NCBI GenBank assembly: GCA_963663405.2
Contig: CAXXSM010000092.1
Span: 32,001 to 96,000, forward strand
Direction of reading: 5' to 3'
DNA: 64,000 nucleotides
Source: a bacterium
GTDB taxonomy: Bacteria > Hinthialibacterota > Hinthialibacteria > Hinthialibacterales > Hinthialibacteraceae
A program made the translations under genes and the position numbers. The notes beneath the pieces were generated by a model that saw only the letters and a list, made by a program, of their open reading frames with translations, was not told the origin of the DNA and made no database searches. Positions 38,990 to 64,000 of this stretch are shown piece after piece. Every line of letters starts with the position of its first letter. The first letter of the stretch is position 1.

Positions 38990-40393
38990 GTGACACACAA
39001 CAAGATACTTCTGAGACTAAGCGCAGTGTTTCTAATTATGGGAACCGTAGTGGGAATCGGTTATGCCGATGAAACCTATTTTTTCTGGTATGGAAGCAAC
39101 CCTGGTTCTATCTCCTGGGCGCCTTTCGATTGGGAGGGACAAGGCCGCGCCAGCGGATTCGCGGACAGTGTTCAACTGGGGGAATTCTATAACCACACCC
39201 CTGATGCGGAAGACAATGATGAATTAAATATGTCTCTCACATTCGGCTTAGACATTGTAGGAAATCAAGGAGCCCATCATCCGACTGTGCTGCCCGGCGG
39301 GGTGGGAACAGTCAGCCTTTGGATATATTACGATTACGATTTCGGATGGGGATTCGATGATTCCATGAACACGATATACCTCTCGGTTCTCGCCGGTCCA
39401 GAACTCGTGAATGACAACTATCTCGGTGTCCAAATGACCTACGGCGCTGATAATTTCACAATTGTGTCAAGTGAAAACGCGGCGGGAGTGGATGGTCCCG
39501 CAGTCAACGTCAATGACTGGAATGAATTCGTTTTCACCGACGATGGAAACGCCACGCAGTTACAAATCAATGGTGAAGACGCTGGACTCAGCCTCCCCAG
39601 CGGTGGGAATCTCTGGTATATCAACATTGTCGATGGCGCGATTCAGAGCGATGGCTCCATCGATAACGGCGTGTGTACAGAGACATGGTATATAGATGAT
39701 ATCGTATGTACCTCCTCTACTGAATCGGGCATCAAATATATTGACGTTCCCCTTACTTCGAACACAGTGACGATCGACGGCGTGATCAATCCCGATGAAA
39801 TCGCCGGCGCGAACGCGGTCTCCTGGAACGGCTCCTCTCCTGAACGGCCTGGCGTACACGCGCAGTTTTACGGTCAGTGGAGTTTAACCACGCCGGAAGA
39901 TCTTACCGCCACCGTCTACCTGCAAAATGATGGAACTAATCTTTATATCAGCATCGACGTGGTGGATGACGTAGTCGCCATGCTCCAAGAGGGTTCCTGG
40001 TGGAATAACGACAGCACAGAACTCTATATCGATCATGACAACAGCCGGAGCACGGACGGCGCGGACCAGGTCTCCATCCAAGCGGACATGGCCTACGGAA
40101 ACGGGGACAGCTTTTCGGATTGGTTATTTATCGATTCCGTAGTTAAATCCGATAATTCCGGTTGGCAGGTCGAAGCGGAAGTGGATATGGCCGCGCGGGG
40201 CCTCTCGCAGGGTGAAAGTTATGGATTCGACATCTCGATCAACGATTCCGACGGCGAAAACGAAACCGGCTACCAAGGCGCCCAGGAATGGCTCTACGCC
40301 AGTTACGAAACCGCGTACTATAATGAAACCTACTGGGGCAACATCCGAATCCTCAGCACCAGCAGCCCCATTAATCACTGGGAAGTCTATTAA
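38990..40393 (+). CDS. Secreted acidic protein with a C-terminal CBM9/DOMON-like sugar-binding domain and an aromatic C-terminal tail
   Basis: GTG start after AAAGGA and a signal peptide (GYA-DE). IDGVI, NLYISIDVVDD, DSTELYID and GFDISINDSD motifs. Ends TSSPINHWEVY. Confidence 0.75.
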   Translation: MTHNKILLRLSAVFLIMGTVVGIGYADETYFFWYGSNPGSISWAPFDWEGQGRASGFADSVQLGEFYNHTPDAEDNDELNMSLTFGLDIVGNQGAHHPTVLPGGVGTVSLWIYYDYDFGWGFDDSMNTIYLSVLAGPELVNDNYLGVQMTYGADNFTIVSSENAAGVDGPAVNVNDWNEFVFTDDGNATQLQINGEDAGLSLPSGGNLWYINIVDGAIQSDGSIDNGVCTETWYIDDIVCTSSTESGIKYIDVPLTSNTVTIDGVINPDEIAGANAVSWNGSSPERPGVHAQFYGQWSLTTPEDLTATVYLQNDGTNLYISIDVVDDVVAMLQEGSWWNNDSTELYIDHDNSRSTDGADQVSIQADMAYGNGDSFSDWLFIDSVVKSDNSGWQVEAEVDMAARGLSQGESYGFDISINDSDGENETGYQGAQEWLYASYETAYYNETYWGNIRILSTSSPINHWEVY

Positions 40394-40659
40394 AAGGATC
40401 AAAACACCTACCCGCGATAGGTAATGGAACACGAGTGTCTCGCTCGTGAATCGTAGAACATCAATTTAATCTTACACAGCCCCCCAAACCAACAACACCA
40501 ATCCTTATCCCTGATATCACACTAACCTTTATAGTAAGCAGAATGTCTTACTGCAATTCCTATCCAAGATTCAATATATAAAAAAAGAAAGGCATTTCTC
40601 ACCCTCTCCAATATTAAATTCAGCCTCAGCCACTACAAAAAATCTCCATAAGTCATACT

Positions 40660-41868
40660 ATGTATAAAACAAATCATTATAAGGATACCAAGCGCCATTA
40701 CGCTGGATCATTCATAAGGAAACTCATGTCTCCAAAGTCTCTCCGTTCCATCACAAATGAGATCGACGATTATGCGATTCTCACCGCGATTGGTGAAGGA
40801 TCGAGAGACGTAATCACCAGCATCGACGCAAAAGGACGTATCCTATCCTGGACATCCGCCGCCGAACGGCTTCTCGGCTATACAGACAATGAAATCATCG
40901 GTCAATCGATCGATATCCTCGTCCCAGAAAATCTACGGGAATACGAACATGAACAGGTTCGAAAACAGATCAACGGTGAGATCGGCGTCTTTCACGAAGA
41001 CACTATCCGGCTTTGCAAATCGGGTGAACCGGTGGAAATCAGTCTTACACGGATTCCCTTGAAAAACCGGCAGGGAAAAAATATCGCTTTGCTCGCCATT
41101 TTAAAAGATGTGTCGGAACAGAAAAAACTACAACAAGAGGTGGATACCCTCCAGCGCAACACGGCGATGGCGAAAGTCGCCGCGAAAGTCGCCCATGAAA
41201 TCCGAACCCCTCTTGGCGTTCTATTCTTAAAATCCGACCTCCTTGTCGAACGGCTGCGAAGGGCGTTTGAAGAATGGGGAACGGGTGATTCGGAAAAACA
41301 TCAAAAAATACTTGAAAAAGGCGTTTCAGATATTCAAAAGCAGATCAACCGATTAGAAGAAATCGCCACGAATTACCTTCATCTTTCAAAAACCGGTACC
41401 ATTGAACGTGTCAATTTAAAACTCCGGCTTTTCATGCGGGACGTCGTATCGGAACTCAAGGAACAATACGATGACCGGATACAATTGGAATATGAAGTGC
41501 AGGATAACCTCCCCGCAGCATGCTTGGACGCTCAGCAATTCCAGCGAGTTTTCTCCAATTTGACACGCAATTCCGTGGAGGCCATCCGATTGGCCCATAT
41601 CCCTAATGGGAAAATTCTCTTCCGCGTCTATCAAGAAGGAGAAACCATTCGATTTGAAGTCAAAGACAACGGACCGGGTATTCCTAAAGAAATCCAACAA
41701 GCCGTTTTCGATCCATTCACTACTTCAAAAAGCATCGGAACCGGTTTGGGATTATATCTAGTCCGGGAGATTGTAGAAAACCATGATGGCTCTATCCATA
41801 TTCAATCTGAAGAAGGGAAAGGAACCACGATCCATATTACCATTCCATTGGAGAGGGACGGCGGCTGA
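40660..41868 (+). CDS. Cytoplasmic PAS-domain histidine kinase
   Basis: PAS/PAC domain, AHEIRTPL H-box, and DNGPGI / GTGLGL boxes. No TM segment. Confidence 0.93.
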   Translation: MYKTNHYKDTKRHYAGSFIRKLMSPKSLRSITNEIDDYAILTAIGEGSRDVITSIDAKGRILSWTSAAERLLGYTDNEIIGQSIDILVPENLREYEHEQVRKQINGEIGVFHEDTIRLCKSGEPVEISLTRIPLKNRQGKNIALLAILKDVSEQKKLQQEVDTLQRNTAMAKVAAKVAHEIRTPLGVLFLKSDLLVERLRRAFEEWGTGDSEKHQKILEKGVSDIQKQINRLEEIATNYLHLSKTGTIERVNLKLRLFMRDVVSELKEQYDDRIQLEYEVQDNLPAACLDAQQFQRVFSNLTRNSVEAIRLAHIPNGKILFRVYQEGETIRFEVKDNGPGIPKEIQQAVFDPFTTSKSIGTGLGLYLVREIVENHDGSIHIQSEEGKGTTIHITIPLERDGG

Positions 41869-43262
41869 TGACGAGACGCGCTCTATTAATTGTTGAAGAC
41901 GACGCCGACTCACGTGAAGCGATCTGCGAATCCCTTGAGACTGAAGGCTATCAATTTTTGGAGGCGGAAACAGGGGAAAAAGCGATTGAAATGTTCGCAA
42001 CATGCGACATCGACGTAGTCACATGCGATATCATGCTTCCGGGAATGAATGGCATCGAAGTCCTCAGGAAGATCAAGGAGATCAAACCCAACACCCAGGT
42101 TGTCATTCTGACTGGTTTAAGCGAAGTCGATACCGCTGTCGAAGCCATGCGGCTGGGCGCCTTCCACTATCTGACCAAACCTATCCGCCAAAAGGAACTT
42201 CGGCTTGTAATCGAGCGCGCGATCGAACAGAGGAAAATGGAAGAAGAGCGGGAGGAGTGGCGCCGTCAAGTCGCCCGGTATTCCGGAAGGCTTCTCGGCA
42301 AATCGACCGCTATGCAGAAAATCTTTCACATCATTGAACAGGTCGCTCCCACCCAAAGCACTGTCCTCATCACAGGAGAAACCGGCACCGGCAAAGATCA
42401 AGTCGCCCGCGAAATCCACGAACAAAGCCGCCGCAGCAACAAACCCTTAATCAAAGTCGACTGCGCGTCTCTGCCCGAATCCCTGCTGGAATCGGAATTG
42501 TTCGGTCACATCCGGGGCTCGTTCACCGGGGCGATCAAAGACCGCAAAGGCCGTTTCGAACTGGCGGACGGCGCGACGATCTTCCTGGATGAGATCGGAG
42601 AAATGTCCGCCAGCGCCCAACAACGCTTGTTGCGCGTCTTGCAGGACTCGGAACTGGAACGAGTTGGCAGCAGCGATACCATCCGGGTCGACGTTCGTGT
42701 GATCGCGGCGACAAATAAAGACTTGGTCCAATCCATCGCGGATAAGAAATTCCGGGAAGACCTTTACTACCGGCTGCGGGTCGTCCAGGTCCAACTTCCC
42801 CCTCTTCGCGATCGTGGAAACGATATTCCAATATTGGCACAGTCGTTTCTAGAACGGTACAGTAATGAGACAGGAAAGGATCTGAAAACATTCTCACAGG
42901 AAGCGATTAACTTCTTGAAGTCCTACTCCTGGCCGGGTAATGTGCGTGAATTACAGCATGCCGTCGAACACGCTTCCATCTTCGCTCAACCTCCAAATGT
43001 AACCTTGGAAGATCTTCCTGATGAGATTAAAGCCGGTTCTTCCCCTATCGTTTACATGGAGGCGGAAGTGAAAACCTCCATCGTTCCAGATGACAAAACT
43101 ATAGTTATATCAGTAGGTTGCACACTTGAAAAAGCTGAATTGGAAATTATCCGTAAAACACTTGCCAGCGTAGGAGGCAATAAAGAGGAAGCCGCGCGCG
43201 TCCTGGGGCTTTCCCGCAGTTCGCTCTACCGCCGATTGCCCAAGCTGGCTGGAATCCCTTGA
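41868..43262 (+). CDS. NtrC-family sigma54 response regulator
   Basis: Receiver domain, GETGTGKD, ESELFGH..GSFTGA, FREDLYYRL, WPGNVREL and a Fis-type HTH. Confidence 0.96.
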   Translation: MTRRALLIVEDDADSREAICESLETEGYQFLEAETGEKAIEMFATCDIDVVTCDIMLPGMNGIEVLRKIKEIKPNTQVVILTGLSEVDTAVEAMRLGAFHYLTKPIRQKELRLVIERAIEQRKMEEEREEWRRQVARYSGRLLGKSTAMQKIFHIIEQVAPTQSTVLITGETGTGKDQVAREIHEQSRRSNKPLIKVDCASLPESLLESELFGHIRGSFTGAIKDRKGRFELADGATIFLDEIGEMSASAQQRLLRVLQDSELERVGSSDTIRVDVRVIAATNKDLVQSIADKKFREDLYYRLRVVQVQLPPLRDRGNDIPILAQSFLERYSNETGKDLKTFSQEAINFLKSYSWPGNVRELQHAVEHASIFAQPPNVTLEDLPDEIKAGSSPIVYMEAEVKTSIVPDDKTIVISVGCTLEKAELEIIRKTLASVGGNKEEAARVLGLSRSSLYRRLPKLAGIP

Positions 43263-43304
43263 GACGGATATGATTTAATGAAAACATAATTAAATCTGGA
43301 TGAT

Positions 43305-43320: not shown

Positions 43321-43356
43321 TTCTTCCAAGCCGTTATGGTTACATTGAGTGTTGTT

Positions 43357-45277: not shown

Positions 45278-46090
45278 TCACTCAAAAATCATGTAATCAG
45301 AAATAGATGTATCAATGATCCGTTCTGTTTCGTAGATTAATGCGATCTCTTCCTCTGTTAATTCTCGGTTGTAGACTCGCACTTCGTCTATCAAACCGGT
45401 ATAAAACCGTTGTTCTTCTCCTTGTATGTTCATTGCGATTTGAAACGGTTGATCGGATAAATCCGGACTGGCGGCTGTGTCCAACGCAACGCTTTCGGCG
45501 CTATCATTTGAAGTCGCTACGTTATCATACTGCCCGTCCACATAATGTTTTACTTCCAGCACAAAGACGCCATCCTCTGGAAATGTGGATGCGACATGAT
45601 GCCACTCATTATCAGCGATAAAAGTTCCCGCGACATTAAATGTACCTTGAATTTCTGTACGAATCGCGCCAACTACACCATTGCTTTCGCTGGTATTAAT
45701 CCGAAAATGGTATTTTTGGCCATTGCCTGTCGACAATCCCCATCCGAGAATTCCATGAGTGTCGATTACATCGGATTTAATCCAACACATGATGGAACGG
45801 CCTGCGTAGCCTTCTATTCCCCACCATTCCGGGGTATGGAGCGCGTCATCGCCATCAAATTCCAAGGCGGTTCCTTGAACGCCGTCTACCCATTGCGGAT
45901 CCCCCGCCAAAACTTCGGCATGAAAACCACTGCCGGATGAATCGTTCGCAACGGTCCCACTGCCCTCATCAAATGTCCAATGCCCAATCAGATCGCTGGT
46001 GATATCCTGCGCTTGCGTACCAACGGCGCAGACCAAAGTAATTAGTCCTACGCAAATCCAAACGTTAAAACTTTGATCAGATCGTTTCAT
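45278..46090 (-). CDS. Secreted LamG-like (jelly-roll) protein with an aromatic C-terminal tail
   Basis: Signal peptide, LIGHWTFDEGSG..ANDSSG, EWHHVA and GLIDEVRVYNREL. Ends DTSISDYMIFE. Confidence 0.88.
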   Translation of the reverse strand: MKRSDQSFNVWICVGLITLVCAVGTQAQDITSDLIGHWTFDEGSGTVANDSSGSGFHAEVLAGDPQWVDGVQGTALEFDGDDALHTPEWWGIEGYAGRSIMCWIKSDVIDTHGILGWGLSTGNGQKYHFRINTSESNGVVGAIRTEIQGTFNVAGTFIADNEWHHVASTFPEDGVFVLEVKHYVDGQYDNVATSNDSAESVALDTAASPDLSDQPFQIAMNIQGEEQRFYTGLIDEVRVYNRELTEEEIALIYETERIIDTSISDYMIFE

Positions 46091-46254
46091 ATCTTCCTCC
46101 ACTGGATTCAAATTATATAACACGATTTCGATCTTATCCTCTCATAACATCGTTCTTTATGTCAAGAAATCTTCTTGACCGTTTGGATTTAATTCATATT
46201 TTGATAGGATTAAAAAAATTACGATAGAGTATGAAAAGACTTGCTCAGTGCTTC

Positions 46255-46357: not shown

Positions 46358-47782
46358 TTATGCCCCTCGGCCTGAGAATAGAAGGTTTTTGATCTTAGCC
46401 AGGGCGGCTCGCAGGTAATTGAGGGCGGTGGATGGGGAACCGGCGTTTTTTAATGTACGGAGAATATAGCGCGGACGCAGATACATCTTCCATAGCGCGC
46501 GGCGGCGCCATGTTGCCAATTCTTCCGGGGAAAGAGTCTCTGTAGATACAGCGCCGAAAGCATAGCCTCCACCACGCAGCCGTTCGCGGGAAATAAGCCC
46601 CCGCTCCGTGGTCATGGATGCCAGTTCTGTACCCGGGAGTGGAAAAGCGACGTTGAAATCGAAGAAATCAGGATCGAGTTCCCGCGCGAATTGGATCAAT
46701 TCGCGGATGCTTTCCTCCGTATCCCAAGGAAAACCAAAGACGAAGAAGGCGTGCGAGCGAATACCCACCTCCCGGCAGAGGCGTACCGCTTCAACCGCTT
46801 GTTGCGCCGTGGCGCGTTTTTTCATCCATTCCAGGTGTTGGTTGTTTCCACTTTCCACGCCGAATCCAACCACCCAGCATCCAGCGCGTTTCATCCATTG
46901 CAGCCGTTCGGCGTCGATGCTGTCTACACGGCTGTTACATCCCCACCGGATGGGGAGCTCTTTATCTAAAATCAATTGACAGAGGGCGATTACCCACTTT
47001 TTGTTCAGGGTAAATGTATCCGCATGAAAGAGAAATTCCCGGATTCCATATTGATTCACGCATTCTTCTATTTCAGCCACGACGCTTTCCGGCGGCCGGA
47101 CGCGCACATTCGTTCCCGTGAGGACAGGGACGGAACAGAAGATACATTGATGCGGACAACCGAGAGAAGTGACGATCGTCGTCAATGGATTCCGGGTTTC
47201 GGGGCTGCGGTAAAGATCGTTCTGGATCAGGTTTCGCGCGGGAAAGGGAAGCGTGTTTAAATCGACAAACTGTTCCCGGATGGGTGTGCGGACGATTTCC
47301 TCATTGCGGAGAAATGTAACGCCGGGGATTTGGGACCAGTCATCCGACCGTATGAATTCAGCAATAGTTCCTTCCACCTCGCCACGCAGAATGATATCCA
47401 GCGAGCGTGTTTCCTGGATAATTTCCTCATCCATCCAGTGAAGAGGCTCTCCTTTGGCAGCGGTAATGGTGTTGGGGAGGCGTTCTTTGATGAGAGCAGT
47501 CGTGCGCAGATCGTTTTCGAGAGTCGCGATTGTGACAGTCAGGATGGCGTAATCCGGTTGGATTTCAACGAGATCAGCGAGAAAAACATCTTCCCCATCC
47601 CGCTGAGCGGGATAATCGCGAACCCAGACCGTATACCCTTCCTTCTCTAAAATCGCCGCGCAATAGAGTAGTTCCATCGGCGGGAAAACCACATTAACGG
47701 TCTGATCTTCTACCCGGTTCTGGCACCGGTTATCCCGCCGGTACAATCCAGAGGGAGGATTGAAGAGAAGGATTTTTTTCAT
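46358..47782 (-). CDS. B12-binding-domain radical SAM protein
   Basis: N-terminal cobalamin-binding-like domain, GCPHQCIFC and FGVESG. Confidence 0.9.
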   Translation of the reverse strand: MKKILLFNPPSGLYRRDNRCQNRVEDQTVNVVFPPMELLYCAAILEKEGYTVWVRDYPAQRDGEDVFLADLVEIQPDYAILTVTIATLENDLRTTALIKERLPNTITAAKGEPLHWMDEEIIQETRSLDIILRGEVEGTIAEFIRSDDWSQIPGVTFLRNEEIVRTPIREQFVDLNTLPFPARNLIQNDLYRSPETRNPLTTIVTSLGCPHQCIFCSVPVLTGTNVRVRPPESVVAEIEECVNQYGIREFLFHADTFTLNKKWVIALCQLILDKELPIRWGCNSRVDSIDAERLQWMKRAGCWVVGFGVESGNNQHLEWMKKRATAQQAVEAVRLCREVGIRSHAFFVFGFPWDTEESIRELIQFARELDPDFFDFNVAFPLPGTELASMTTERGLISRERLRGGGYAFGAVSTETLSPEELATWRRRALWKMYLRPRYILRTLKNAGSPSTALNYLRAALAKIKNLLFSGRGA

Positions 47783-49089
47783 TTTTTGTCTGTTGCGGGG
47801 GTAGGCGTTGTTTGCGCGGCTTTCTTTTCTTCCAAACGCCGCCGTTCTTCCCGCAACATGTACTGCATCATCGCATTGACCTGCTGCATCGCTTCAGGAA
47901 CACTGGAATACGCTTTTCGGATTCGTTCAAGCGTCTCTTTCGCTTTGTTAAACTTGTCTAGTTTGATGTAGGCGTCTGCAATATTGAACATGGCGGAGAT
48001 AGGGCTTTCAGGGGTTGGCGGTTCAGCGATGTATTTTTCATAGTTGGCGATGGCCTCGCTTAGGTATTTCTCCGATTCCGCCGGTGTTGTGTCTCTGATG
48101 AGGCTGGCGATTTCGACCCGCGCTTTATTCGCATAATCCGATTCCGGGAATTCATCGATCAGACGGTGGTGTTCATGCGTCAACACCGCGATCTCTTCCG
48201 GCGAGTAGCCCTCACCATCTTCACGGAACAGAAATTCGAGGCTTTGGATCTTCCAGACGATTAATTTGGGTTTTTCTGATTCGAGAATATCGGGATGCTT
48301 TTGGAGTTGGTCATAGATCGTAGCGGAAGAGATATAATCACCCGCCCGCGCCCAGGTATGCGCCCAGGCGATGACATTATTATTCTTGGCCCAATCCAAT
48401 CCCAATCGTTCGGGATTCATACCTTCGACGCTCGTGACGTTACGAATAATACCAAGTGTTCGCGAAAATGTATCCCGCGCCAGTTCGAACTCACCGCTGG
48501 CTTGATAGACATTCGCTTCCCCCGCCAAAGCTCTCATTTCCATGTCGTACGCCATCGTGGGATCCTCGATCGATTCCCCAGCGATTTTCATGATCTTCTC
48601 ATATTCGGTAATGGCGTCTTCCGTCCGTTTTTGGGAAGCGTAAACATTCGCCAGCGCGGAATACGCTTGGCTTTGGATTTCGGGATTGGTTGTAGCGCTG
48701 GCGATTTCCGCGAAATGGGAAGCGGATTTGATCAAATTTCCTTCATCAAAATAGGTACGGCCAATTTGAAAATCACAGGAGAGAACTAAATTCGGAATGT
48801 TGGAGAATTTTTCTCTGACCTGCTGAAAAACCTTCCGGGCGCTGGCGAAATCTTTCATCTTATAATGGCAATTGGCGAGTAAATCATAGGCTCTTAGAAG
48901 CCGTTCGTCATCCGGAAATTTTTCCACGAATTCTTCAAAATTGAGCGCGGCGCCGATGACGTCACCATCTTCCAATGCGCGGAGACCACGATTAAACACC
49001 GCTTCCGGTGTATTGGACGCGCAGGCGCTGAGCAATCCAATGATTCCTATCAAACCGATACAAATAGCGATCCCGATTCTTCCATTCAT
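47779..49089 (-). CDS. TPR-repeat lipoprotein
   Basis: LLSAC lipobox and multiple TPR-like helices. Confidence 0.82.
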   Translation of the reverse strand: MNGRIGIAICIGLIGIIGLLSACASNTPEAVFNRGLRALEDGDVIGAALNFEEFVEKFPDDERLLRAYDLLANCHYKMKDFASARKVFQQVREKFSNIPNLVLSCDFQIGRTYFDEGNLIKSASHFAEIASATTNPEIQSQAYSALANVYASQKRTEDAITEYEKIMKIAGESIEDPTMAYDMEMRALAGEANVYQASGEFELARDTFSRTLGIIRNVTSVEGMNPERLGLDWAKNNNVIAWAHTWARAGDYISSATIYDQLQKHPDILESEKPKLIVWKIQSLEFLFREDGEGYSPEEIAVLTHEHHRLIDEFPESDYANKARVEIASLIRDTTPAESEKYLSEAIANYEKYIAEPPTPESPISAMFNIADAYIKLDKFNKAKETLERIRKAYSSVPEAMQQVNAMMQYMLREERRRLEEKKAAQTTPTPATDKK

Positions 49090-49412
49090 GAAGTTCAACC
49101 TTTGTTCCGTTTTTGGCCGAATAGAGGCACAACCGTTTCCCATCATGCGGCGATTGGCCGTATTCTTTCTATTCTATTCGGTGATGGATTCATATGACTA
49201 CGAGATATGTAAAGACATGTCATTTTGAGATTATCCCATTTTCTGTAAAAAAAGGAAGCCGGAGAGGAACTTCCATCCCGGAAAGGTATTGTCAGCAATG
49301 GGTAGGAGATTTGACGTTTTTATGGCAAAATATAGGGCATTTGCCTTCCTCAAATCACGTAACGGAGGGAATTGATTGAATTTGCTGGCATATGGAAAAT
49401 GGGGTAATCATC

Positions 49413-50674
49413 ATGAAACTGCATACAAAAATCTTTATCGGCCTGTTCGCCGCGATTCTATTTGGCGGGATCATTCAATACTTGGGATTTGAGGCGGAAC
49501 AATTAACCACGCTCTCCATTCTGCTCAACCTTGTGGCGCAGATCTTCCTGCGTCTTTTGAAAATGATCGTAGTTCCAGTAGTCGTCAGTTCGTTGATCTG
49601 CGGGATCGTGGGCGAGGGGAAACTGGGAACTCTTGGAAGGCTGGGGCTCCGTACAATCGCTTTTTATTTTGTTAGCACATTGCTGGCGATCCTGACGGGT
49701 TTTCTCTTTGTGAATCTCATTCAACCCGGCGTGGGCAGCAATCTAGATCTCGAAGCGCCCGGAGAGTCTCTGGGAGAAGCCGGGACATGGACCGATTTGA
49801 TTCTGCGCATCGTGCCCAGCAATTTCATCGGCGCGCTGGCGTCGGGCGATATGATCGCAGTAATCTTCTTCACAGTGATGTTCTCGATCTTTTCTTTCCA
49901 AGTTTCAGAAGAATCCCGTGGGCAGATCGTCAGTTTTTTCCGTGCGGTGTTGGATGTTGTGATGTCAATGACGATCTTTATTATCGGATTGGCGCCGGTT
50001 GGTGTGTTTTGCCTGGTCTCCGACTTGATTATTCGGACAGGGTTTGGACCATTTATTCCACTGGGATGGTATTGTTTTACAGTGGGTCTCTCACTGGCGA
50101 TCCATTTTACACTGACTCTTCCCCTGTTGCTGTATCTATTAACCCGGCTTTCCCCCGTCCGGTTTGCCTCGGCGATGGCGCCGGCGTTGCTCACGGCGTT
50201 CTCTCTACCGCCTCCAGCAGCGCGACGCTGCCCCTCACGATGGCGTGCGGAGAACGTCGGGCTGGAGTTCATAAACGGATCAGCAGTTTCGTTCTCCCTC
50301 TCGGCGCGACAGTGAATATGGATGGAACGGCGCTGTACGAATGCGTGGCGGTGATTTTTATCGCGCAGGCGGTGGGGCACGATCTATCCGCCATCGATCA
50401 GGTGACAATCATCTTCACAGCGCTGCTAGTCTCAGTCGGCGCGGCGGGGATCCCTCACGCGGGGCTCGTCATGATGGTGATTATTTTCAACGCTGTCGGT
50501 TTACCTCTCAAAGCGACGGGGATGATTTTCGCCGTGGACCGGGTTCTCGATATGGCGCGCACCATGACCAACGTCTGGAGCGACAGCACGTGCATGATCG
50601 TCGCCGCTCATTTTGAGGACGAGATCGACCGGGATGTGTTTAATGGGGAGAATGTGGACGTAGAAATGGGATGA
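49413..50674 (+). CDS. Dicarboxylate/amino acid:cation symporter (GltP/DctA family), frameshift near 50205
   Basis: [33 protein letters not shown] and [12 protein letters not shown]. There are two extra bases in TCTCTCT. Confidence 0.9.
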
Positions 50675-50985: not shown

Positions 50986-51693
50986 ATGATGAAAAGAACG
51001 AAAGCATTTACACTGATCGAACTCCTGATTGTCGTCGCAATTATCGGCATTCTAGCCGCCATCGCCGTGCCGAATTTTCTGAACGCGCAAACCCGCGCGA
51101 AATTGGCGCGGTGTAAATCAGACCTGCGGTCGATCGCGATGGCGGCGGAACAGTATTTCCTGGATGTGAATGATTATCCACCCAGCCACATGATCTGGAT
51201 GCTCAGCACGCCCGTACCCTATATCGCCAACATTCCCAAAGATGTTTTTCCACCACCCTATGAAAACAATAGTCAACAGCCCCAAACGTACGCTCAATGG
51301 ACCTGGTACCGTTACATGTCTCTCCCAAAGGGGACAACGGATATGGTACAGCGGTCTGCGGTGATTATTGGGCTTATTTCGAACCGTACGCGTTACGTAG
51401 CGAAGCGATGAATCTTTCGTCCCAAAAAGGATGTGGGTCCGTACGATGGTATACAAAATCATTTGGGGACTAACGCAGGAATGACGGGATTATGCGGGAC
51501 GAACGGGGATGACTGCACGCTCCGTTTTGATCCTACAAACGGCCTGGTGAGTATTGGGGATGTCGCAATCTTTGGACCGGGGGACGATTGGAGTAATGAT
51601 TCAGATTCTTGCAGGTATTTTTTAGATGAATACTATACTATTGAAGGATTGAAATGGAGACAGGTTTTTAGGGTTGGAAAGCCCCTGCTTTAG
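50986..51693 (+). CDS. Prepilin-type N-terminal cleavage protein (GspG-like), at least two frameshifts
   Basis: AFTLIELLIVVAIIGILAAIAVPNF, with RFDPTNGLVSIGDV in a later frame. The 3' end is uncertain. Confidence 0.8.
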
Positions 51694-56217: not shown

Positions 56218-56841
56218 ATGCAGAACAATCATAAGGGGTTTACTTTGATCGAATTGCTTATTGTCGTCGCGATTATCGGGATTCTCGCCGCGATCGCCGT
56301 GCCAAATTTCCTGAACGCTCAAACACGGGCGAAAATTGCGCGGGCGGAATCGGATATGCGGAACCTGAAAGTCGCGATCGACTCGTACCAGATCGATAAC
56401 AATCAGTATCCAACCGCGCGCTACAATCCTGTGACCGGTGAGAGCGGCCAGATTGCGCTTAGACACCGTTTGTACATGCTAACGACACCGGTATCCTACA
56501 TGAGCAGCATTCCGAGTGATCCCTTCTGGAGCCAACTGAGTGAATATGATCCCGAATTCTTTGACACGTATGATTACTTTGATAATTGGTCCGGCGTGAA
56601 TTACGACAACAGCGAAGCGGGATCGGGCACACGGGGTCACAGTTATCGCCTGGCCAGCGCCGGTCCGGATAACATCATGTGTTGGGGAAGCCCGGCGGCG
56701 TCCAACGCGGGTCATACGGGAATCGATTTCCATACGAGCAATGGATTAACTTCGGATGGAGATATCGTCACTGTGGGCGGGACCATTGTGAATTCGCGGT
56801 GGGTGGTGGAATATCCACTGACGGCGTATCCACGGTTTTAG
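56218..56841 (+). CDS. Prepilin-type N-terminal cleavage protein (GspG-like)
   Basis: GFTLIELLIVVAIIGILAAIAVPNF, YRLASAGPD and SNGLTSDGDI. Confidence 0.92.
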   Translation: MQNNHKGFTLIELLIVVAIIGILAAIAVPNFLNAQTRAKIARAESDMRNLKVAIDSYQIDNNQYPTARYNPVTGESGQIALRHRLYMLTTPVSYMSSIPSDPFWSQLSEYDPEFFDTYDYFDNWSGVNYDNSEAGSGTRGHSYRLASAGPDNIMCWGSPAASNAGHTGIDFHTSNGLTSDGDIVTVGGTIVNSRWVVEYPLTAYPRF

Positions 56842-56945
56842 AGCGTAAAAACATCTTTCCCATCCAACCTATTCCCCTCTAACAATACATGATAAAGTAA
56901 CACATCACAATCAACAATCATCCTCTACAAAAACAGGAGTTATCA

Positions 56946-58325
56946 ATGAAGGCAATTCTTCATATTATTACATTTGCTCTACTCACAATCCCGTTTTGTT
57001 TCGCAGACGACGCCGAACAAAAACCAATTGATCCCCGCGTTGAAATAGAGGAAGAAGTCTATACATATGAACCGGCGGACAATGGAGCCGGGCCGATGTG
57101 GTGTCATGGGAACACCTCGATCGTTCGCATGGGGGATGAGGTATACGCCAGCGGGCTTGAAACCATTCCCGGCGCCAAACCGCTGAATAACTGCCTGCCC
57201 CTTCTGTTCCGCCGAACGGATGAAGGCTGGAAACAGATCTACAAAGGCGAGGGACGCACGCGGGAACCTTCCCCTATGACGATGTTCCATGATGGACGAG
57301 TTTTCCAATCGATCAATCCAACCCTGTCCAAACCGGAGGAGTATGACGGCCTTGCGAAACCGCAGATCCTCGTTTTCTCGCATAGTTCCGAACAATACAA
57401 AACACTCACACCCATCTGGGAAGGTACCCCCTCTTTTTCTGGACACTCGTATCGAAGTTTCGTGGCGGATGGAGCCGATGGAGAACTGATTCTCTTCCAA
57501 AATATCGGCTACGCCCATGCGGAATGGTCTTTCCTCGACAAGAAAGGGAACTGGTCCGCGCAAGGGAAAATTAAATGGCCGTTTGAAGAGAAATACGATA
57601 AACCTCAGCCTGTCCGTATCTGTTACCCTAACGTCATGTTAAAAGACCGCGCGGTACATTTTTGTGGCGTTAGCGATATTGTCGAACCGTATCAAGTTTG
57701 GCAAGAATTCAAATTTGAATTGACGGGCCGGAAATGGGATTACGATTTCCGGCGGCTGTTCTACACGTGGAGCGATGATATTACAAAAGAAGGATTTCAC
57801 GAATGGGTTGAGATCGCCAGCCGGGATAAAACCTGTGGGTGGATCTCTCCAAGAGATCTACACGTGTTGGATTCGGGCGATGTCCTGATTCTATGGAGCG
57901 AACGCGCGCTTGATGAACGGCTGCGCGAGAAATTCTTCCCCAACGAGAAACAACGGTATTCCCTAGAGTTCGCCGTCATCCGCAAGGGTAAAGTAATTCT
58001 GCGCAAAACACTCATCGAGGGAGGCGAAGACCTGGGTGGGGCGCGTCCTGGAGACGCCTGTTTTCATGTTCTGGAAGATGGCCGCCTGTTCATTTTCTAT
58101 TATCTCAGCGGAACTGACGCCGAAGGGAAATCTATCGCCGGGAATCGCTTGATGGAAATTTCTCCCGATGGGAAAACCGGAAAATCCATCCCCGTTAAGT
58201 TACAGACTCCGTTCGGTTCCTTCTTCACCGCCACTATTCGCGCTGGATGTAAACCTTCCTCTATAATCGATGTCTTTGGCTCCTCGAACCAGACAATGCG
58301 CTACGCACGGATTCGGCTATATTGA
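56946..58325 (+). CDS. Secreted hypothetical protein (possible beta-propeller)
   Basis: Signal peptide, 459 aa and an AGGAG RBS. No family recognised. Confidence 0.7.
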   Translation: MKAILHIITFALLTIPFCFADDAEQKPIDPRVEIEEEVYTYEPADNGAGPMWCHGNTSIVRMGDEVYASGLETIPGAKPLNNCLPLLFRRTDEGWKQIYKGEGRTREPSPMTMFHDGRVFQSINPTLSKPEEYDGLAKPQILVFSHSSEQYKTLTPIWEGTPSFSGHSYRSFVADGADGELILFQNIGYAHAEWSFLDKKGNWSAQGKIKWPFEEKYDKPQPVRICYPNVMLKDRAVHFCGVSDIVEPYQVWQEFKFELTGRKWDYDFRRLFYTWSDDITKEGFHEWVEIASRDKTCGWISPRDLHVLDSGDVLILWSERALDERLREKFFPNEKQRYSLEFAVIRKGKVILRKTLIEGGEDLGGARPGDACFHVLEDGRLFIFYYLSGTDAEGKSIAGNRLMEISPDGKTGKSIPVKLQTPFGSFFTATIRAGCKPSSIIDVFGSSNQTMRYARIRLY

Positions 58326-58350: not shown

Positions 58351-60342
58351 TTACTTATAGAATTCATACGTTTTCATAGAGGAAGTCTGTAGTAAATCCG
58401 AAAGACGCCATAGCCGGATTGTGTCATCCGCGCCTGAGGTAAGGATGGTTTTCCCATCCGGTGAGAACTCGGCGGATTCAATCTCATATTGATGATTTCC
58501 TTCAAAGGAGAATATTTGCTCCCCACTGAATGTGTCCCATAGATAAATTATTTTTTTTGGACTGGCGGTGAGCAGGTAACGATTATTGGGAGATAAAGAG
58601 ATGAGATAATAAGAATTGATATAATCAACCAGTTTGTCCCCCGTTTCCACATCCCACAACGACGCCTCATGATCGCTGGTACTCATCACCAAGTATTTTC
58701 CATCTTTTGAAAATTCCGCGGCCAAGATCTCACTATTGCTACCAGAGAATATATGGATTACATCCCCTGTTTCCGCGTCCCATAAAATCGCGTTCATTCG
58801 TGATTCATCTAATGTAAGAACCTTCGTTTCATCTGGAGAGAAGGTGGCCACACGGGAGACAGAATCGAGTTTACTGCGCAATGGACTGACCTTCGATCGT
58901 CCTGTATCCGTAGAGGAAGCGTTTGTTAAAGAATTCCCGCCGCCGCCCTCCGCTGGAGGGAGGAAGGAATGGATCTTTTCCCCTGTCGCGACATCCCAGA
59001 TGACTCCCAGTTCATTCACCTCCGTTCCGGCGCCCGTGAGTAATTTGGTCCCGTCACGCGTCACACAGGCGGAATAATCCATCCTATTCGGTAAGACATC
59101 CAGTGATAATAATAAATCACTGGTTTCCACATCCCAGAGACGGATTGTCATGGGATACCCGTTGGTGATTAAATACCGGCCATTGGCAGATAACGTAGTA
59201 AAATAAACCCACCCGTAAAATGGAGTGAAGGTTTTGACAACGGCGCCATTGTCTGTGTCGATTAAGTAAGCGCCTAAGTCGCTCCCTACGCAGATGTTTT
59301 TTCCATCCGGAGAAAAATGGGCGTTATAGAGATAATTAATCGAATTTCCATACGACAAAACCGGTTTTCCGGTTTCCAAATCCCACAGTTGTAAAAAGCC
59401 AAAATAACCAGCGATCATATGCCGGCCATCGCTCAGAATATACGTGTTCCCCCCCGGTTTTGGATTGTATTTTGTCTCTGTGGTTTCTCCTGTTTCTGGA
59501 TCGATATATTCAATGATTCCCGGCTCACAGGCCTCCTTCATACACCAGGAATTGAAGATAATTTGGGAGCCATCGGCGCTGAATCGATACGATCCGGATT
59601 TTTCCCAAAGGTGAACCAGGTTTCCGGTTAAAGTTTCCCACAAACGGCCGTATCCAATGCCTGTAACGGTCAGTAGATAATCTCCATCGGGTGAAAATTC
59701 GACTTCATCTACATTCATGTCATGAAGGTAAGTAACAAGTTTTTCCCCATTCTCAATGTTCCATAAATCCGCCGTCATCGCTTTGGCGCCAATCGCGACG
59801 TACTTCATATCCGGTGAAAAGATAGCGTCAGTGGTCGTTCCTTTATAATCTCCAAAAGAACGCACGAACGCGCCGGTTTCCAAGTTCCACTGTTCCGCTG
59901 TGAAGAGTTCGGTGGAGGAAACGTATCTGCATATCAGCGTGTATTTGCCATCGGGGGATATACTTAATCCGTCGGAAGAGTTCAAACTGCAATCAAAGGA
60001 TACAATTTCTCGTCCTGATTCAATGTCCCAAAGAACACTGTAATTCCCTGAGACAAGTAACTTCGATCCACCCGGTGAAAACGTCACACCCATAATCGTT
60101 TGATCTTCTTTGTAAAAATGGTGGATTTGTTCTCCGGTAAATGTATCCCACAAGAACACACCATAATCTCCACTTGTGGCGACCATACGCTCATCCAATG
60201 AGACGGCCGTCGAGTACCTGCCTCCATACGTCAGGATTGTTTCCCCCGAAGGCCCGGTTAACGTTTGTGACTGAGCGGATGGCAGCGCGCAGAGATGAAT
60301 GAGTAACGCAATGGTAAGGATGTAAGACTTGTGTGAGAACAT
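58351..60342 (-). CDS. Secreted WD40-repeat protein, paralog 1
   Basis: Signal peptide and many FSPDG...LWD repeats. Ends QTSSMKTYEFYK. Confidence 0.9.
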   Translation of the reverse strand: MFSHKSYILTIALLIHLCALPSAQSQTLTGPSGETILTYGGRYSTAVSLDERMVATSGDYGVFLWDTFTGEQIHHFYKEDQTIMGVTFSPGGSKLLVSGNYSVLWDIESGREIVSFDCSLNSSDGLSISPDGKYTLICRYVSSTELFTAEQWNLETGAFVRSFGDYKGTTTDAIFSPDMKYVAIGAKAMTADLWNIENGEKLVTYLHDMNVDEVEFSPDGDYLLTVTGIGYGRLWETLTGNLVHLWEKSGSYRFSADGSQIIFNSWCMKEACEPGIIEYIDPETGETTETKYNPKPGGNTYILSDGRHMIAGYFGFLQLWDLETGKPVLSYGNSINYLYNAHFSPDGKNICVGSDLGAYLIDTDNGAVVKTFTPFYGWVYFTTLSANGRYLITNGYPMTIRLWDVETSDLLLSLDVLPNRMDYSACVTRDGTKLLTGAGTEVNELGVIWDVATGEKIHSFLPPAEGGGGNSLTNASSTDTGRSKVSPLRSKLDSVSRVATFSPDETKVLTLDESRMNAILWDAETGDVIHIFSGSNSEILAAEFSKDGKYLVMSTSDHEASLWDVETGDKLVDYINSYYLISLSPNNRYLLTASPKKIIYLWDTFSGEQIFSFEGNHQYEIESAEFSPDGKTILTSGADDTIRLWRLSDLLQTSSMKTYEFYK

Positions 60343-60410
60343 GATTAATCTCCCAACAATATTGGAATATAGAATGATGTTTCATTCTTTCATACCGCTT
60401 GCGCTCGTTG

Positions 60411-62450
60411 CTATGGATACAATTCAAACCCATCCGCGAATGATGTCTGAATCAAATCCGCAAAGCGCCATATCCGGATGGTGCCGTCCGAAGAGGCGGT
60501 AAGAATAGTGTCACCATCGGGTGAGAATTCGGCGGCGACAATCTGTTCACCATGGTTCCCATTAAAAGAGAAGAGTTTCTCCCCGCTGAATGTATCTAAA
60601 AGAGCGATTGGATTATTTCCACGGCCGTAATAATCCTTGGTGGCGGCGAGCAGGAAGCGGTTGTCTGGGGATAGTGAAACGTGATTGACGGTTGAGTATT
60701 TATATTGATCACGAATTAAAGCGACTGGGATCTGATTGAGATTATCCCCCGTTTCCACATCCCATATCTGAACGATGTGATCGTTGCCTCCTGTCACTAC
60801 ATATTGCCCATCCTTTGAAAATTCCGCGCACAAGATCTCTTGGCTGTGTCCAGTGAAAGTATGGATCACCTCTCCCGTCTCCACGTCCCACAAGATTGCG
60901 CTCATTCGAGACTTGTCTAAGGTAAGCGCTTTTGATTCATCCGGTGAGAACGTGGCGACGCGGGAAAGAGTGGGAGTATAGCTGCTAAGCGGCCGCGTTT
61001 TCGACAAAGATGAATCTGTGATGGAAACATTCATTGGAGAGTTCCCGCCTCCACCCTCTGCTGGAGCGAGAAAAGAATGAATCTTTTCCCCCGCCGCGAC
61101 ATCCCAGATGACGCCTAACTCATTTTCATCCGTCCCCGCGCCCGTAAGAAGTTTTGTTCCATCATGCGTTACACATGCAGAAATATCCTGCCTGGTCTGT
61201 ATAACATCTTGTGATAACAATAAATCACTGGTTTCCACATCCCAGAGACGGATGGTCGTGGGATTCCCATTGGTGATTAAAAACCGGCCATCAGCAGATA
61301 AAGAGGTGTAATACGCCGACTCGTTCAACGGGCTGAAAGTACGGACAACAGCGCCATTCTCCGTATCGATTAAATAGGCGCTGAAATCACTTCCCACACT
61401 GATGGTTTTTCCATCCGGTGAAAATTCAGCGTTATATATAGAATTGATCGAATTCCCATACGTTAAAACCGGTTCATTGGTTTCCAAGTTCCACAGTTGC
61501 AAGAATCCCCAATAGCCGCTTATCATATGCCGTCCATCGTTAAAAAAATGAGTGTTAATTCCCATTCCAGGAATGGTTTTCGATTCTATCGTTTCTCCGG
61601 TTTCTGGATCGATGGATTCGAAATACGCCGGTTCGCCTGTATCCACATTCCGCCTGGCGCTCAATTCGATCCGGCGCCCATCAGTACTATACCGATACGA
61701 ACCGGGCTTACTCCAGAGATGGATTAAGTCACCAGTAAAAGTATCCCATAGACGGCCATATCCATTTCCAGTAACCGTGAGCAGATGATTTCCATCTGGA
61801 GAAAATTCCACATAATCTACACTCATATCATGAATGTATGTAATGAGCTTTTCTCCATCTTCAACACTCCAGAGATCCGCCTTTGATATTTCTGTGCCAA
61901 TGGCGATGTATTTCATATCCGGCGAGAAAACCGCGTTAGTGGTCGTTCCTATATAATCTCCAAAGGAACGCACGAACGCGCCGGTTTCCAAGTTCCACTG
62001 TTCCGCTGTGAAGAGTTCGGTGGAGGAAACGTATCTGCATATCAGCGTATATTTGCCATCGGGGGATATACTTAATCCATCGGAAGAGTTCAAACTGCAA
62101 TCAAAGGATAAGAGTTCCTGTCCTGATTCGATGTCCCAAAGAACACTGTAATTCCCTGAGACAAGCAGCTTTGATCCATCCGGTGAAAACGCCACACCCA
62201 TAATCGTTTGGTCCTCTTTGTAAAAATGACGGATTTGTTCTCCGGTGAACGTATCCCACAAGAACACGCCATAATCTCCACTTGTCGCGGCCATACTCTC
62301 ATCCAATGAGACGGCCGCTGAATACCTGCCTCCATACGTTAGGATCGTTTCACCCGAAGGCCCGGTTAATGTTTGGGATTGAACGGATATCAACGAGCAA
62401 AGATAAATGAGTAACGCAATGGTAAGGATGTAAGACTTGTGTGAGAACAT
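60411..62450 (-). CDS. Secreted WD40-repeat protein, paralog 2
   Basis: N-terminus nearly identical to paralog 1. Ends QTSFADGFELYP. Confidence 0.9.
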   Translation of the reverse strand: MFSHKSYILTIALLIYLCSLISVQSQTLTGPSGETILTYGGRYSAAVSLDESMAATSGDYGVFLWDTFTGEQIRHFYKEDQTIMGVAFSPDGSKLLVSGNYSVLWDIESGQELLSFDCSLNSSDGLSISPDGKYTLICRYVSSTELFTAEQWNLETGAFVRSFGDYIGTTTNAVFSPDMKYIAIGTEISKADLWSVEDGEKLITYIHDMSVDYVEFSPDGNHLLTVTGNGYGRLWDTFTGDLIHLWSKPGSYRYSTDGRRIELSARRNVDTGEPAYFESIDPETGETIESKTIPGMGINTHFFNDGRHMISGYWGFLQLWNLETNEPVLTYGNSINSIYNAEFSPDGKTISVGSDFSAYLIDTENGAVVRTFSPLNESAYYTSLSADGRFLITNGNPTTIRLWDVETSDLLLSQDVIQTRQDISACVTHDGTKLLTGAGTDENELGVIWDVAAGEKIHSFLAPAEGGGGNSPMNVSITDSSLSKTRPLSSYTPTLSRVATFSPDESKALTLDKSRMSAILWDVETGEVIHTFTGHSQEILCAEFSKDGQYVVTGGNDHIVQIWDVETGDNLNQIPVALIRDQYKYSTVNHVSLSPDNRFLLAATKDYYGRGNNPIALLDTFSGEKLFSFNGNHGEQIVAAEFSPDGDTILTASSDGTIRIWRFADLIQTSFADGFELYP

Positions 62451-62518
62451 GATTAATCTCCCAACAATATTGGAATAGAGAATGATGTTTCATTCTTACA
62501 TGCCGCTTGCGCTCGTTA

Positions 62519-64000
62519 CTATGGATACAATTCAAATCCATCCGCGAATGATGTCTGAATCAAATCCGCAAGGCGCCATATCCGGATGGTGTTATCCAAA
62601 CCCGCTCCAGCAGTCAGGATTGATGTTCCATCGGGAGAAAAATCGGCGGCGGTGATTTGATAATCATGGTTTCCATTAAAAGAGAACAGTCTCTCTCCAC
62701 TGAATGTGTCCCATAGAATAATCGAGTAACCTCCTCGCAAGATCCCGGTTGAACTGGCGGTGAGTAAATAACGGTTGTCTGGGGATAAAGAGATTTGATT
62801 CATAGAGAAACTGTTATATTGAAGCCGGTAATTATATTGAGCGAGATTTTCCCCTGTTTCGACATTCCACAACCGGGCGATTCCAAACCGATCACCTGTC
62901 ACTGCGTATTGTCCATCTTTGGAAAATTCAGCGCTTAATATTGACTGTGCGTGACCTATGAAAGTATGTAGTACATCCCCCGTCTCCGCATCCCATAAGA
63001 TCGCGTTCATCCGTGACGCATCCAATGTAAGCGCTTTCGATTCATCGGGAGAGAATGTGGCCACACAGGAGAGAGTATCTGGATAAGTGCTTAAAAGGCG
63101 CGCCTTTGATGAAACCTCATCGAAAACGCTCGCTGGATAATTTCCACCGCCCTCATCTGAAGCGGGGAAAGAATGGATCTTTTCCCCCGTCGCGACATCC
63201 CAGATCACTCCCAATTCGTTCTCCTCTGTTCCCGCGCCTGTAAGAAGTTTTGTTCCATCACGCGTTACGCAAGCGGATATGTCTTCCCTTGCGCGCAGGA
63301 CATCCAGTGATAACAGTAAATCACTGGTCTCTACATCCCAGAGACGAATTGTCGTGGGGTAACCATTGGTTATCAAATACCGGCCATCAGCGGATAAAGA
63401 GGTAAAATAGGCCGACTCATAAAACGGCGCGAATGTGCGGACTACAGAACCATTATCCGCATCGATTATGTAGGCGCTGAAATCGCTCCCAACGCTGATG
63501 GTTTTTCCATCCGGAGAAAATTCGGCGTTATATAACGAATTGATCGAATTTCCATACGTCAAAACCAGTTCTTCCGTTTCCAAATCCCATAGTTGCAATA
63601 ATCCATCATAACCGCCGATCATATACCGTTCATCATTAATGAAAAAACAGTTACTTCCATATCCTGGGATGGTTTTTGTCTCTGTTACCTCTCCGGTATC
63701 TGGATCGAGATATTCGATTGACGCCGGTTCGCCCGTATCCACATTCCACCTGGAACTGTATACAATCCGGCTTCCATCAGAATTAAATCGATAGGAGCCC
63801 TTGTTAGGCCATTCATGGATTAAATCGCCGGACAATGTATCCCACAAATACCCCTTACTGCCGGAAATAGTCAGCAGCCGCGTTCCATCCGGAGAGAATT
63901 CTACTGAGCTCACACTCACAGGATGATTGTAAGAAACGAGTTTCTCTCCATCTTCAATCCTCCATAAATCCGTTTCTGAACGTTTCGCGCCAACTACTAC
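62519..64000 (-). CDS. WD40-repeat protein, paralog 3, 5' part outside the window
   Basis: Frame is open to base 64000. Ends QTSFADGFELYP. Confidence 0.88.
   Translation of the reverse strand, partial: VVVGAKRSETDLWRIEDGEKLVSYNHPVSVSSVEFSPDGTRLLTISGSKGYLWDTLSGDLIHEWPNKGSYRFNSDGSRIVYSSRWNVDTGEPASIEYLDPDTGEVTETKTIPGYGSNCFFINDERYMIGGYDGLLQLWDLETEELVLTYGNSINSLYNAEFSPDGKTISVGSDFSAYIIDADNGSVVRTFAPFYESAYFTSLSADGRYLITNGYPTTIRLWDVETSDLLLSLDVLRAREDISACVTRDGTKLLTGAGTEENELGVIWDVATGEKIHSFPASDEGGGNYPASVFDEVSSKARLLSTYPDTLSCVATFSPDESKALTLDASRMNAILWDAETGDVLHTFIGHAQSILSAEFSKDGQYAVTGDRFGIARLWNVETGENLAQYNYRLQYNSFSMNQISLSPDNRYLLTASSTGILRGGYSIILWDTFSGERLFSFNGNHDYQITAADFSPDGTSILTAGAGLDNTIRIWRLADLIQTSFADGFELYP

Follow-up and report, generated by a model that had tools for sequence, protein, structure and literature searches.

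A short aromatic C-terminal tag on secreted proteins of an uncultured bacterial phylum and its possible link to an expanded pseudopilin family

Several prokaryotic lineages place short, lineage-restricted tags at the C-termini of exported proteins, as in the LPXTG/sortase, PEP-CTERM/exosortase, GlyGly-CTERM/rhombosortase, MYXO-CTERM/myxosortase and PGF-CTERM/archaeosortase pairs. These signals are tripartite, combining a signature motif, a transmembrane helix and an Arg-rich cluster, and several of them need the type II secretion system (T2SS) at the last step, as set out in a preprint (bioRxiv 10.1101/2023.06.07.544157). The type IX secretion system (T9SS) reads a folded C-terminal domain of ~70-100 residues, borne together with an N-terminal Sec signal by diverse secreted and surface proteins. 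In other cases the information lies in the last few residues, which must sit at the very C-terminus: the Y-x-F tails of outer-membrane proteins (OMPs) are ligands for the PDZ domain of DegS, which senses them, and the eukaryotic peroxisomal targeting signal 1 (PTS1), -SKL-COOH, is read by Pex5. Here we describe a tag of nine to ten residues, roughly T-P-V-x-D-W-x-L-Y, that ends many secreted proteins of an uncultured bacterium, and that a first-pass annotation had picked out on five proteins in a 64,000-nucleotide stretch (C92:32001-96000, the whole of which is called the window) of an 8.44-Mb genome in 170 contigs (82% complete, 48% G+C). It has the appearance of an address label, new to description, for proteins leaving the cytoplasm.

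The tag was counted in a crude gene set of 6390 non-overlapping open reading frames (ORFs) of at least 100 aa, which take up 83% of the DNA and whose C-termini are independent of start choice. The core pattern W-x-[ILVMF]-[YFW] closes 119 ORFs exactly, where its internal frequency predicts 3.4, and is followed by one extra residue in a further 26. The consensus proposed in the first-pass annotation, written as a regular expression, behaves in the same manner, being C-terminal in 34 of the 6390 ORFs versus 0.3 expected from internal frequency. A position weight matrix (PWM) of the last ten residues, refined over four iterations, yielded the logo [TVS]-[PSA]-[VI]-x-[DN]-W-x-[LIVM]-[YF]-COOH, in which H joins the last position in later iterations and positions -1, -2, -4 and -7 are hydrophobic. 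At a threshold of >=12 the matrix selects 189 ORFs (~3% of the proteome) and nothing from three sets of internal control windows (3x6390). The match lies exactly at the C-terminus in 150 of these ORFs, one residue before it in 36 and two residues before it in 3. Over all 2,285,506 windows of the proteome there are 211 matches at this threshold, of which 189 lie 0-2 residues from the C-terminus, 4 lie at 3-10 residues and 18 are internal; the tag is dependent on the extreme C-terminus.

Among the 150 exact cases, the third codon positions of the conserved tag residues carry 0.02-0.08 bits of information, the 40 nt downstream of the stop codon carry at most 0.15 bits, and Val and Leu draw on their full sets of four and six codons. 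Because neither third positions nor downstream DNA are conserved, the tag is conserved at the protein level; an origin by chance, or as a DNA repeat or terminator, is ruled out by these near-zero values together with the empty control windows. With their tails removed, the 189 tagged proteins form 76 BLAST clusters, 50 of them singletons, and Pfam searches with 25 carriers returned LamG, CBM9, leucine-rich repeat (LRR) and WD40 domains, weak matches to beta-helix, 3-keto-disaccharide-hydrolase or DUF1349 families, or nothing. The sharing of the tag by unrelated carriers, proposed from three folds, therefore extends to ~190 proteins in at least 76 clusters.

The proposal from the window also hung on the motif being commoner in secreted proteins, and it is: signal-peptide-like N-termini are found on 154 of the 189 tagged ORFs (81%) and on 2106 of the 6176 untagged ones (34%), an odds ratio of 8.5 (p=1.5e-39) obtained with a crude heuristic that also catches membrane proteins. 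Many of the 35 tagged ORFs that lack such an N-terminus are fragments or mis-started ORFs. The signal peptides of tagged proteins are of the signal peptidase I type, with a lipobox in 1%, and a small-x-small-Gln site follows the hydrophobic region in 64% of tagged versus 22% of untagged proteins (in the window, for example, in those encoded at 45278-46123 and 58351-62450). A Gln after the signal-peptide cleavage site recalls the Gln(+1) rule for signal-peptidase-I substrates of the Bacteroidota, a point of likeness to the T9SS setting. Sugar-binding solute-binding proteins (PF13416) were unusable as a periplasmic control, the genome having one such gene; as a small substitute, the nine PDZ proteases, two TonB receptors and 135 pseudopilins of the genome were inspected, and none ends in the tag.

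The distribution of the tag follows the phylum, which is probably Candidatus Hinthialibacterota (OLB16), to judge by source labels: orthologues are labelled 'Candidatus Hinthialibacter sp.' or 'Candidatus Omnitrophota bacterium', and a close genome is deposited as Omnitrophota. The OLB16 group, now Ca. Hinthialibacterota, formerly stood within Omnitrophota, according to PMC9324843. The ending V-x-[DN]-W-x-h-[YFH]-stop, written as a degenerate DNA pattern and compared with a reversed control, has 62 matches in this genome versus 2 in the control and is enriched in 32 of 35 phylum genomes (6-62 matches, with at most 4 in the control). The exceptions are G033, which is weak (5 vs 3), G026, which is doubtful (3 vs 1), and G028, which is negative (1 vs 1). 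G028, with 65% G+C and in a separate family (f6), is the only clearly tag-free genome of the phylum; within a 400-kb sample of it (C1:1-400000), one of 300 ORFs reached the PWM threshold and no obvious replacement tail was seen. Such a genome is a natural negative control for a search for machinery. In 13 genomes of other phyla, few and small (all 1.2-3.5 Mb), so that the outgroup test is limited, the pattern stays at background level; seven of them are the isolate SZUA-191 metagenome-assembled genome and members of the Firestonebacteria, Nitrospirales, Armatimonadota, Magnetococcales, Ardenticatenia and Rhodanobacteraceae. Within this sample, the lineage specificity suggested from the window is upheld.

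Taken together, the genomes firmly show a phylum-wide tag at the extreme C-terminus that is selected as protein sequence and borne by Sec-exported proteins of many folds. It combines the features by which C-terminal sorting signals are generally recognised, namely unrelated carriers, N-terminal signal peptides and restriction to one lineage. No published description of it was found in the literature on Hinthialibacter/OLB16, sorting signals and pseudopilins, the supplements of which could hold protein lists, and the terms 'C-terminal', 'sorting' and 'secretion system' have no occurrence in the accessible portion of PMC9324843.

The carriers in the window and their tails are as follows.

38729..40393 (+): gene for a secreted CBM9/LamG-like protein, given as the longest ORF; CBM9_1 match (E=1.7e-15) at residues 384-540 of 554
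40361..40390 (+): its C-terminal tag SSPINHWEVY, canonical and at the exact C-terminus (PWM 20.1, offset 0), past the end of the CBM9 model
45278..46123 (-): gene for a secreted LamG protein; Laminin_G_3 match at residues 109-261 of 281
45281..45310 (-): its C-terminal tag TSISDYMIFE (PWM 16.4, offset 1), in which Y replaces W and one further residue follows at the end
58351..60342 (-): secreted WD40 protein 1 (Pfam WD40); tail TSSMKTYEFYK (58354-58386), a weak match, PWM 1.9
60411..62450 (-): secreted WD40 protein 2 (Pfam WD40); tail TSFADGFELYP (60414-60446), borderline, PWM 7.7, offset 1
62519..64000 (-): secreted WD40 protein 3, 5' end outside the window; tail TSFADGFELYP (62522-62554), borderline, PWM 7.7

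All five tails reported earlier are found in the ORF translations at the positions given for them: the CBM9-like protein ends ...TSSPINHWEVY (...ILSTSSPINHWEVY), the LamG protein ...DTSISDYMIFE (...IIDTSISDYMIFE), WD40 protein 1 (58351-60342, minus strand) ...QTSSMKTYEFYK (...LLQTSSMKTYEFYK), and WD40 proteins 2 and 3 (60411-62450 and 62519-64000, both minus strand) ...QTSFADGFELYP (...LIQTSFADGFELYP). The signal peptides ascribed to the carriers can likewise be seen, as signal-peptide-like hydrophobic N-termini in all five proteins. WD40 protein 3 starts outside the window, at C92:96552, its full gene being C92:94519-96552, and the true start of the CBM9 gene (38729..40393, plus strand) probably lies downstream of the longest-ORF start, ahead of the hydrophobic signal segment. 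As examples of a single motif the five do not stand equally. The CBM9 and LamG tails (20.1 and 16.4) are clear members, whereas the three WD40 tails (7.7, 7.7 and 1.9) are marginal or degenerate, and the WD40 genes, being tandem paralogues, count as one event. No orthologues of the WD40 proteins were found beyond the three tandem copies, the next best match having 33% identity, so that orthology does not decide the status of their tails. Canonical tags do occur on other WD40-like proteins of the genome, for instance ...NVENWDLYDK and ...AVDDYMLY. Pfam bears out the domain assignments of the window proteins, the WD40 propellers included.

The tail lies outside the folded domain, as had been proposed. 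The Laminin_G_3 and CBM9 matches stop 14-20 residues short of the C-terminus, and a homologue search with the LamG protein found 86 relatives, among them 16 orthologues of 43-72% identity that all end in h-x-x-[FYW]-[ME]-[LIF]-[YF](x). In 15 aligned orthologues the linker between the LamG domain and the tail varies in sequence and length, with indels, and the tag is kept. Many of the distant LamG proteins end right after the domain, and others carry a different tail in the same place: PGF-CTERM in two (so named by the Joint Genome Institute), a T9SS tail (PF18962) in one, and a different short W-containing tag in 13. The slot is filled by different sorting signals in different lineages, and this choice of anchor is how sorting tags behave. 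The second W-tag reads ...[AV]-V-x-P-x-x-K-L-x-T-T-W-[GA]-x-[IV]-K plus 1-6 residues; one of its 13 carriers, and a further look-alike, are labelled Candidatus Poribacteria, and the tail may be an analogous tag of other uncultured lineages.

Variation within the tag of the genome under study has a pattern of its own. Where F or Y takes the W position, the next residue is usually Met (...DYMLY, ...DFMLF, ...DYMIFE), and the LamG orthologues have [FY]-M in closer relatives and W-E in more distant ones, a possible covariation.

Set against the described signals, the tag shares with the tripartite ones its presence on dozens to hundreds of unrelated signal-peptide proteins per genome, and LamG and similar domain families bear one such tag or another by lineage. 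It differs in ending the protein within 9-10 residues, with no hydrophobic helix and no basic tail, and while tripartite signals are cleaved by an intramembrane or membrane-bound sorting enzyme, none is identified here. A signal of the LPXTG, PEP-CTERM or GlyGly-CTERM type was rejected, as only 0-2 residues follow W-x-L-[YFH], with no hydrophobic stretch or Arg cluster. None of the NCBIfam CTERM models matched the tail in 10 carriers (E<=10), in a search whose HMMER filters can lose short models; the sole CTERM match among these 10 was Firmicu-CTERM at E=2.1 on residues 49-96 of one protein. More generally, no Pfam model (25 carriers) or NCBIfam model (10 carriers) covers the tag. The T9SS domain (Por_Secre_tail), with no model match in the same sets, was rejected as well, the conserved block of ~9-10 residues being too short. 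The earlier statement that the tail is neither PEP-CTERM nor LPXTG and is shorter than a T9SS domain thus agrees with both its architecture and the absent model matches. The likeness to PDZ ligands and PTS1 lies in the need for the very C-terminus (189 of 211 matches); motif and compartment differ, and PTS1 is eukaryotic.

One question raised by a tag of this kind is what reads it. When gene families within three genes of tagged genes were compared, one prepilin family of ~200 residues, with the N-terminus GFTLIELLIVVAIIGILAAIAVPNF..., stood far above the rest. Its 135 members, of ~206 aa, share an almost identical N-terminal helix and, toward the C-terminus, the motif S-N-G-x-x-S-x-G-D-I. All 10 proteins scanned exceed the cut-offs of N_methyl and TIGR02532. 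The family resembles GspG, the major pseudopilin of the T2SS, in its prepilin N-methylation motif and partial T2SSG domain, and GspG is also its best solved relative (5wda, E=3.5e-17, profile positions 7-101), with no solved-structure match for the C-terminal ~110 residues. It differs from GspG in that its 135 copies are scattered outside T2SS operons and fall below the GspG equivalog cut-off: nine paralogues score 47-76 bits against TIGR01710 (cut-off 88.85), and only the operon copy (L144) passes, with 124 bits. Many copies are present in 35 of 35 phylum genomes (among the matches listed, at least 89 in some). Large pseudopilin paralogue families are also known from bacteria of the Planctomycetes-Verrucomicrobia-Chlamydiae (PVC) group. 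In the literature on DUF1559/pseudopilins and on OLB16 secretion and pili, no described pseudopilin paired with tagged cargo genes was found. The cell is a diderm with at least seven secretin genes, three T2SS-like clusters (C118, C29 and C133) and one Tad cluster.

A pseudopilin-like gene is immediately adjacent to 23 of the 189 tagged genes, where permutation expects 7.6+-2.5 (maximum 17 in 500 runs); in 18 of the 23 pairs the two genes share a strand and are separated by 6-543 nt, and the 23 tagged neighbours belong to 20 different clusters. Seen from the other side, tagged genes make up 8.7% of pseudopilin neighbours versus 3.0% of the background, roughly a threefold excess, and untagged signal-peptide genes are not enriched (32% versus 31%), so that the pseudopilin link concerns the tag itself, not secreted proteins in general. 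The paralogues themselves are often in tandem (24 of 263 neighbour slots). Second in the neighbour comparison were LuxR-type response regulators; in one family, for example, 10 of 17 proteins are encoded that close to a tagged gene (p=2.6e-5), which suggests local two-component control and locally regulated islands.

Two of the pairings recur in other genomes. In module 1 (C35:32-2534), a tagged LamG-containing protein is followed by a pseudopilin, and the gene immediately before the pseudopilin orthologue is tagged in all five assessable loci of at least 70% identity (G009, G019, G006, G014 and G005), a sixth locus falling at a contig edge. In a second family, f5, the arrangement is present in four of four loci with homologous cargo, the tails being ...EWSQY in three (one of them below the PWM cut-off) and ...HWSLFK; it is missing in eight matches of 57-68% identity, which are probably paralogues. 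In module 2 (C149:61666-63966), a gene with a canonical tag ends just upstream of the pseudopilin in nine of 30 loci, and in a further three the tail is a variant, ...DWAQL in two and ...NWEILK in one. When the seven closest non-self loci are taken alone, the tag is canonical in four, variant in two and absent from one.

The tag is probably a sorting or docking signal that is read as a free C-terminal peptide, and it may, as inferred in the first-pass annotation, bring about export or surface anchoring. Carriers would bear ordinary Sec/signal-peptidase-I signal peptides that take them across the inner membrane; their free C-terminal peptide, held on a short linker outside the fold, would then be read as a sorting or docking signal that routes the protein onward from the periplasm, either through the outer membrane or onto a surface structure. 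The explanation that best fits the whole, and toward which we lean, is that of a tag for sorting or docking after Sec export, with type-IV-filament/T2SS-like machinery as its possible reader. Among candidate readers, the genomic coupling puts an apparatus of this class first, and within it the expanded pseudopilin family, although the assignment of the reading to pseudopilins or T2SS-like machines is tentative; the tag would in that case dock cargo to a pseudopilin or to another part of the machine. In its most specific form, which we regard as doubtful, lectin-like, LRR, WD40 and enzyme modules would be soluble cargo that the tail plugs onto cognate GspG-like pseudopilins, and the filament machine would export the cargo or display it along the fibre.

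A number of observations weigh against a role for the pseudopilins, or against the export reading as a whole. Only 12% of tagged genes adjoin a pseudopilin gene, and 88% do not. In two other genomes (G042/G043), where the check covered 40 tag sites, 3 of 37 called genes plus one probable case are adjacent, against ~1.6-1.8 expected, which is in the same direction but not significant alone. In the tag-free G028, pseudopilin-like matches still number at least 42, and the C29-type T2SS secretin also has an orthologue there (29% identity, as in family f5), so that neither is cleanly lost together with the tag, and the profiling for co-occurring machinery recommended in the first-pass annotation does not discriminate for either component. 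It is not evident why a single conserved tag should need 135 different readers, no fusion of a pseudopilin to a tagged-type domain occurs in this genome, and no pseudopilin carries the tag. None of the nine PDZ genes lies in a T2SS cluster, nor near tagged genes. The crudeness of the ORF call and of the signal-peptide heuristic, and the small outgroup sample, count on the same side.

Two single observations belong beside these. The candidate role of a GspC-type PDZ domain as tag reader was rejected, as none was found in any T2SS cluster. One pseudopilin paralogue that adjoins a tagged gene (G000:C18:53468-54196) ends ...ENEIIHWNVYSLTR, with a tag-like I-x-H-W-x-V-Y four residues before its C-terminus, the sole case among the 135.

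Everything that marks the tag as belonging to exported proteins would apply equally if it were a sorting or retention tag bound non-covalently by an outer-membrane, S-layer or surface receptor, the adjacency of pseudopilins then reflecting shared regulation in accessory islands. This alternative, which we consider unlikely, would accommodate the large majority of tagged genes that have no pseudopilin beside them, the pseudopilin numbers that do not cleanly follow loss of the tag, and the LuxR-type regulators that suggest regulated islands. It is harder to reconcile with the enrichment of tagged, and not of untagged, signal-peptide genes beside pseudopilins, or with two modules conserved across genera, one of them across families, and no candidate receptor was found. 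The strict need for a free C-terminus with aromatic or hydrophobic last residues raises another alternative, since PDZ domains read just such peptides: the tail could be a ligand for periplasmic PDZ proteases (HtrA/DegS-like enzymes or S41 C-terminal processing peptidases) and thus a quality-control, stress-sensing or processing signal instead of an address, much as OMP Y-x-F tails activate DegS or as tail-specific proteases recognise their substrates. The nine PDZ proteins of this genome comprise four of HtrA type, three of S41 type, one M61 peptidase and one beta-helix protein. However, such proteases occur in nearly all bacteria (PDZ_2 is present in all 14 control genomes) and the tag in one phylum, no PDZ gene is linked to tagged genes, and it is hard to see why ~190 unrelated soluble proteins would keep a degradation or stress signal under purifying selection, all of which makes this account improbable.

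A structural role for the tail, as the last beta-strand of the carrier domains, would suit the shortness of the linker, which in many cases spans 4-8 residues beyond a conserved last strand (for example ...IDN-h-x-I), and the alternation of polar and hydrophobic residues in part of the tail. It is nevertheless very improbable, because the same tail ends LamG, CBM9, LRR, WD40, beta-helix and unknown folds (the 76 clusters), the domain models are complete without it, the linker varies in length among orthologues, and LamG homologues elsewhere end earlier or bear other sorting tags at that point. Closer still to refutation is the idea that the tag is the OMP beta-signal of this lineage, recognised by the beta-barrel assembly machinery (BAM), which the terminal aromatic residue might suggest. 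The two TonB-dependent receptors of the genome end in ...SISVSATF and ...YAGITARF, and such classical ...SATF/...TARF endings argue that the tag is not the local OMP signal. Its hydrophobic positions do not alternate, and the carriers are soluble-domain proteins, as the first-pass annotation had held in stating that they are not beta-barrels.

Should the tag prove to be a sorting signal, it would label the secretome or surface proteome (~3% of genes) of an entire uncultured phylum, thought to degrade complex polysaccharides, which standard predictors cannot do; it would besides depart from the rule of motif, transmembrane helix and basic tail among prokaryotic C-terminal signals, and would supply a sharp phylogenetic profile for finding machinery. 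Were the pseudopilin link true, it would bear on two questions of long standing, cargo recognition by T2SS-like machines and the purpose of the huge PVC-related pseudopilin paralogue families. Docking, if true, would mean that this machine class has a secretion or display signal that is both linear and transferable, the first of its kind, and that dockerin-cohesin has a functional counterpart based on pili, with the short W-tags of other uncultured phyla (...KL-x-TTWG-x-IK on Poribacteria-labelled LamG proteins) as sister systems. A transferable tag of nine residues could possibly be used in engineered secretion or display.

Pseudopilin-like genes are also found in the window, within the range of the carriers described above.

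50986..51411 (+): short pseudopilin-like gene, 141 aa, the second such gene in the range
56218..56841 (+): GspG-like pseudopilin paralogue, 207 aa, with the N-terminal motif GFTLIELLIVVAIIGILAAIAV; member of the 135-copy family

The longer of the two (56218..56841) lies two genes from WD40 protein 1 and 105 nt upstream of a gene for a secreted 459-aa protein (56946-58325, plus strand). The latter has no Pfam family and ends ...MRYARIRLY, that is, with L-Y and without W or the remainder of the tag; the pair (56218-58325, plus strand) may be a degenerate or tag-less cargo/pseudopilin module. The tagged LamG gene is immediately preceded, on its own strand, by a pair of genes (46358-49146, minus strand) for a B12-binding radical S-adenosylmethionine (SAM) enzyme (46358-47782) and, overlapping it by 4 nt, a tetratricopeptide repeat (TPR) protein with a lipoprotein-like signal (47779-49146). 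Further along, two overlapping ORFs on the plus strand (49392-50315 and 49787-50674) appear by eye to be the two halves of a sodium:dicarboxylate symporter-type transporter, and the interval 49392-50674 probably represents a frameshifted gene or a sequencing error.

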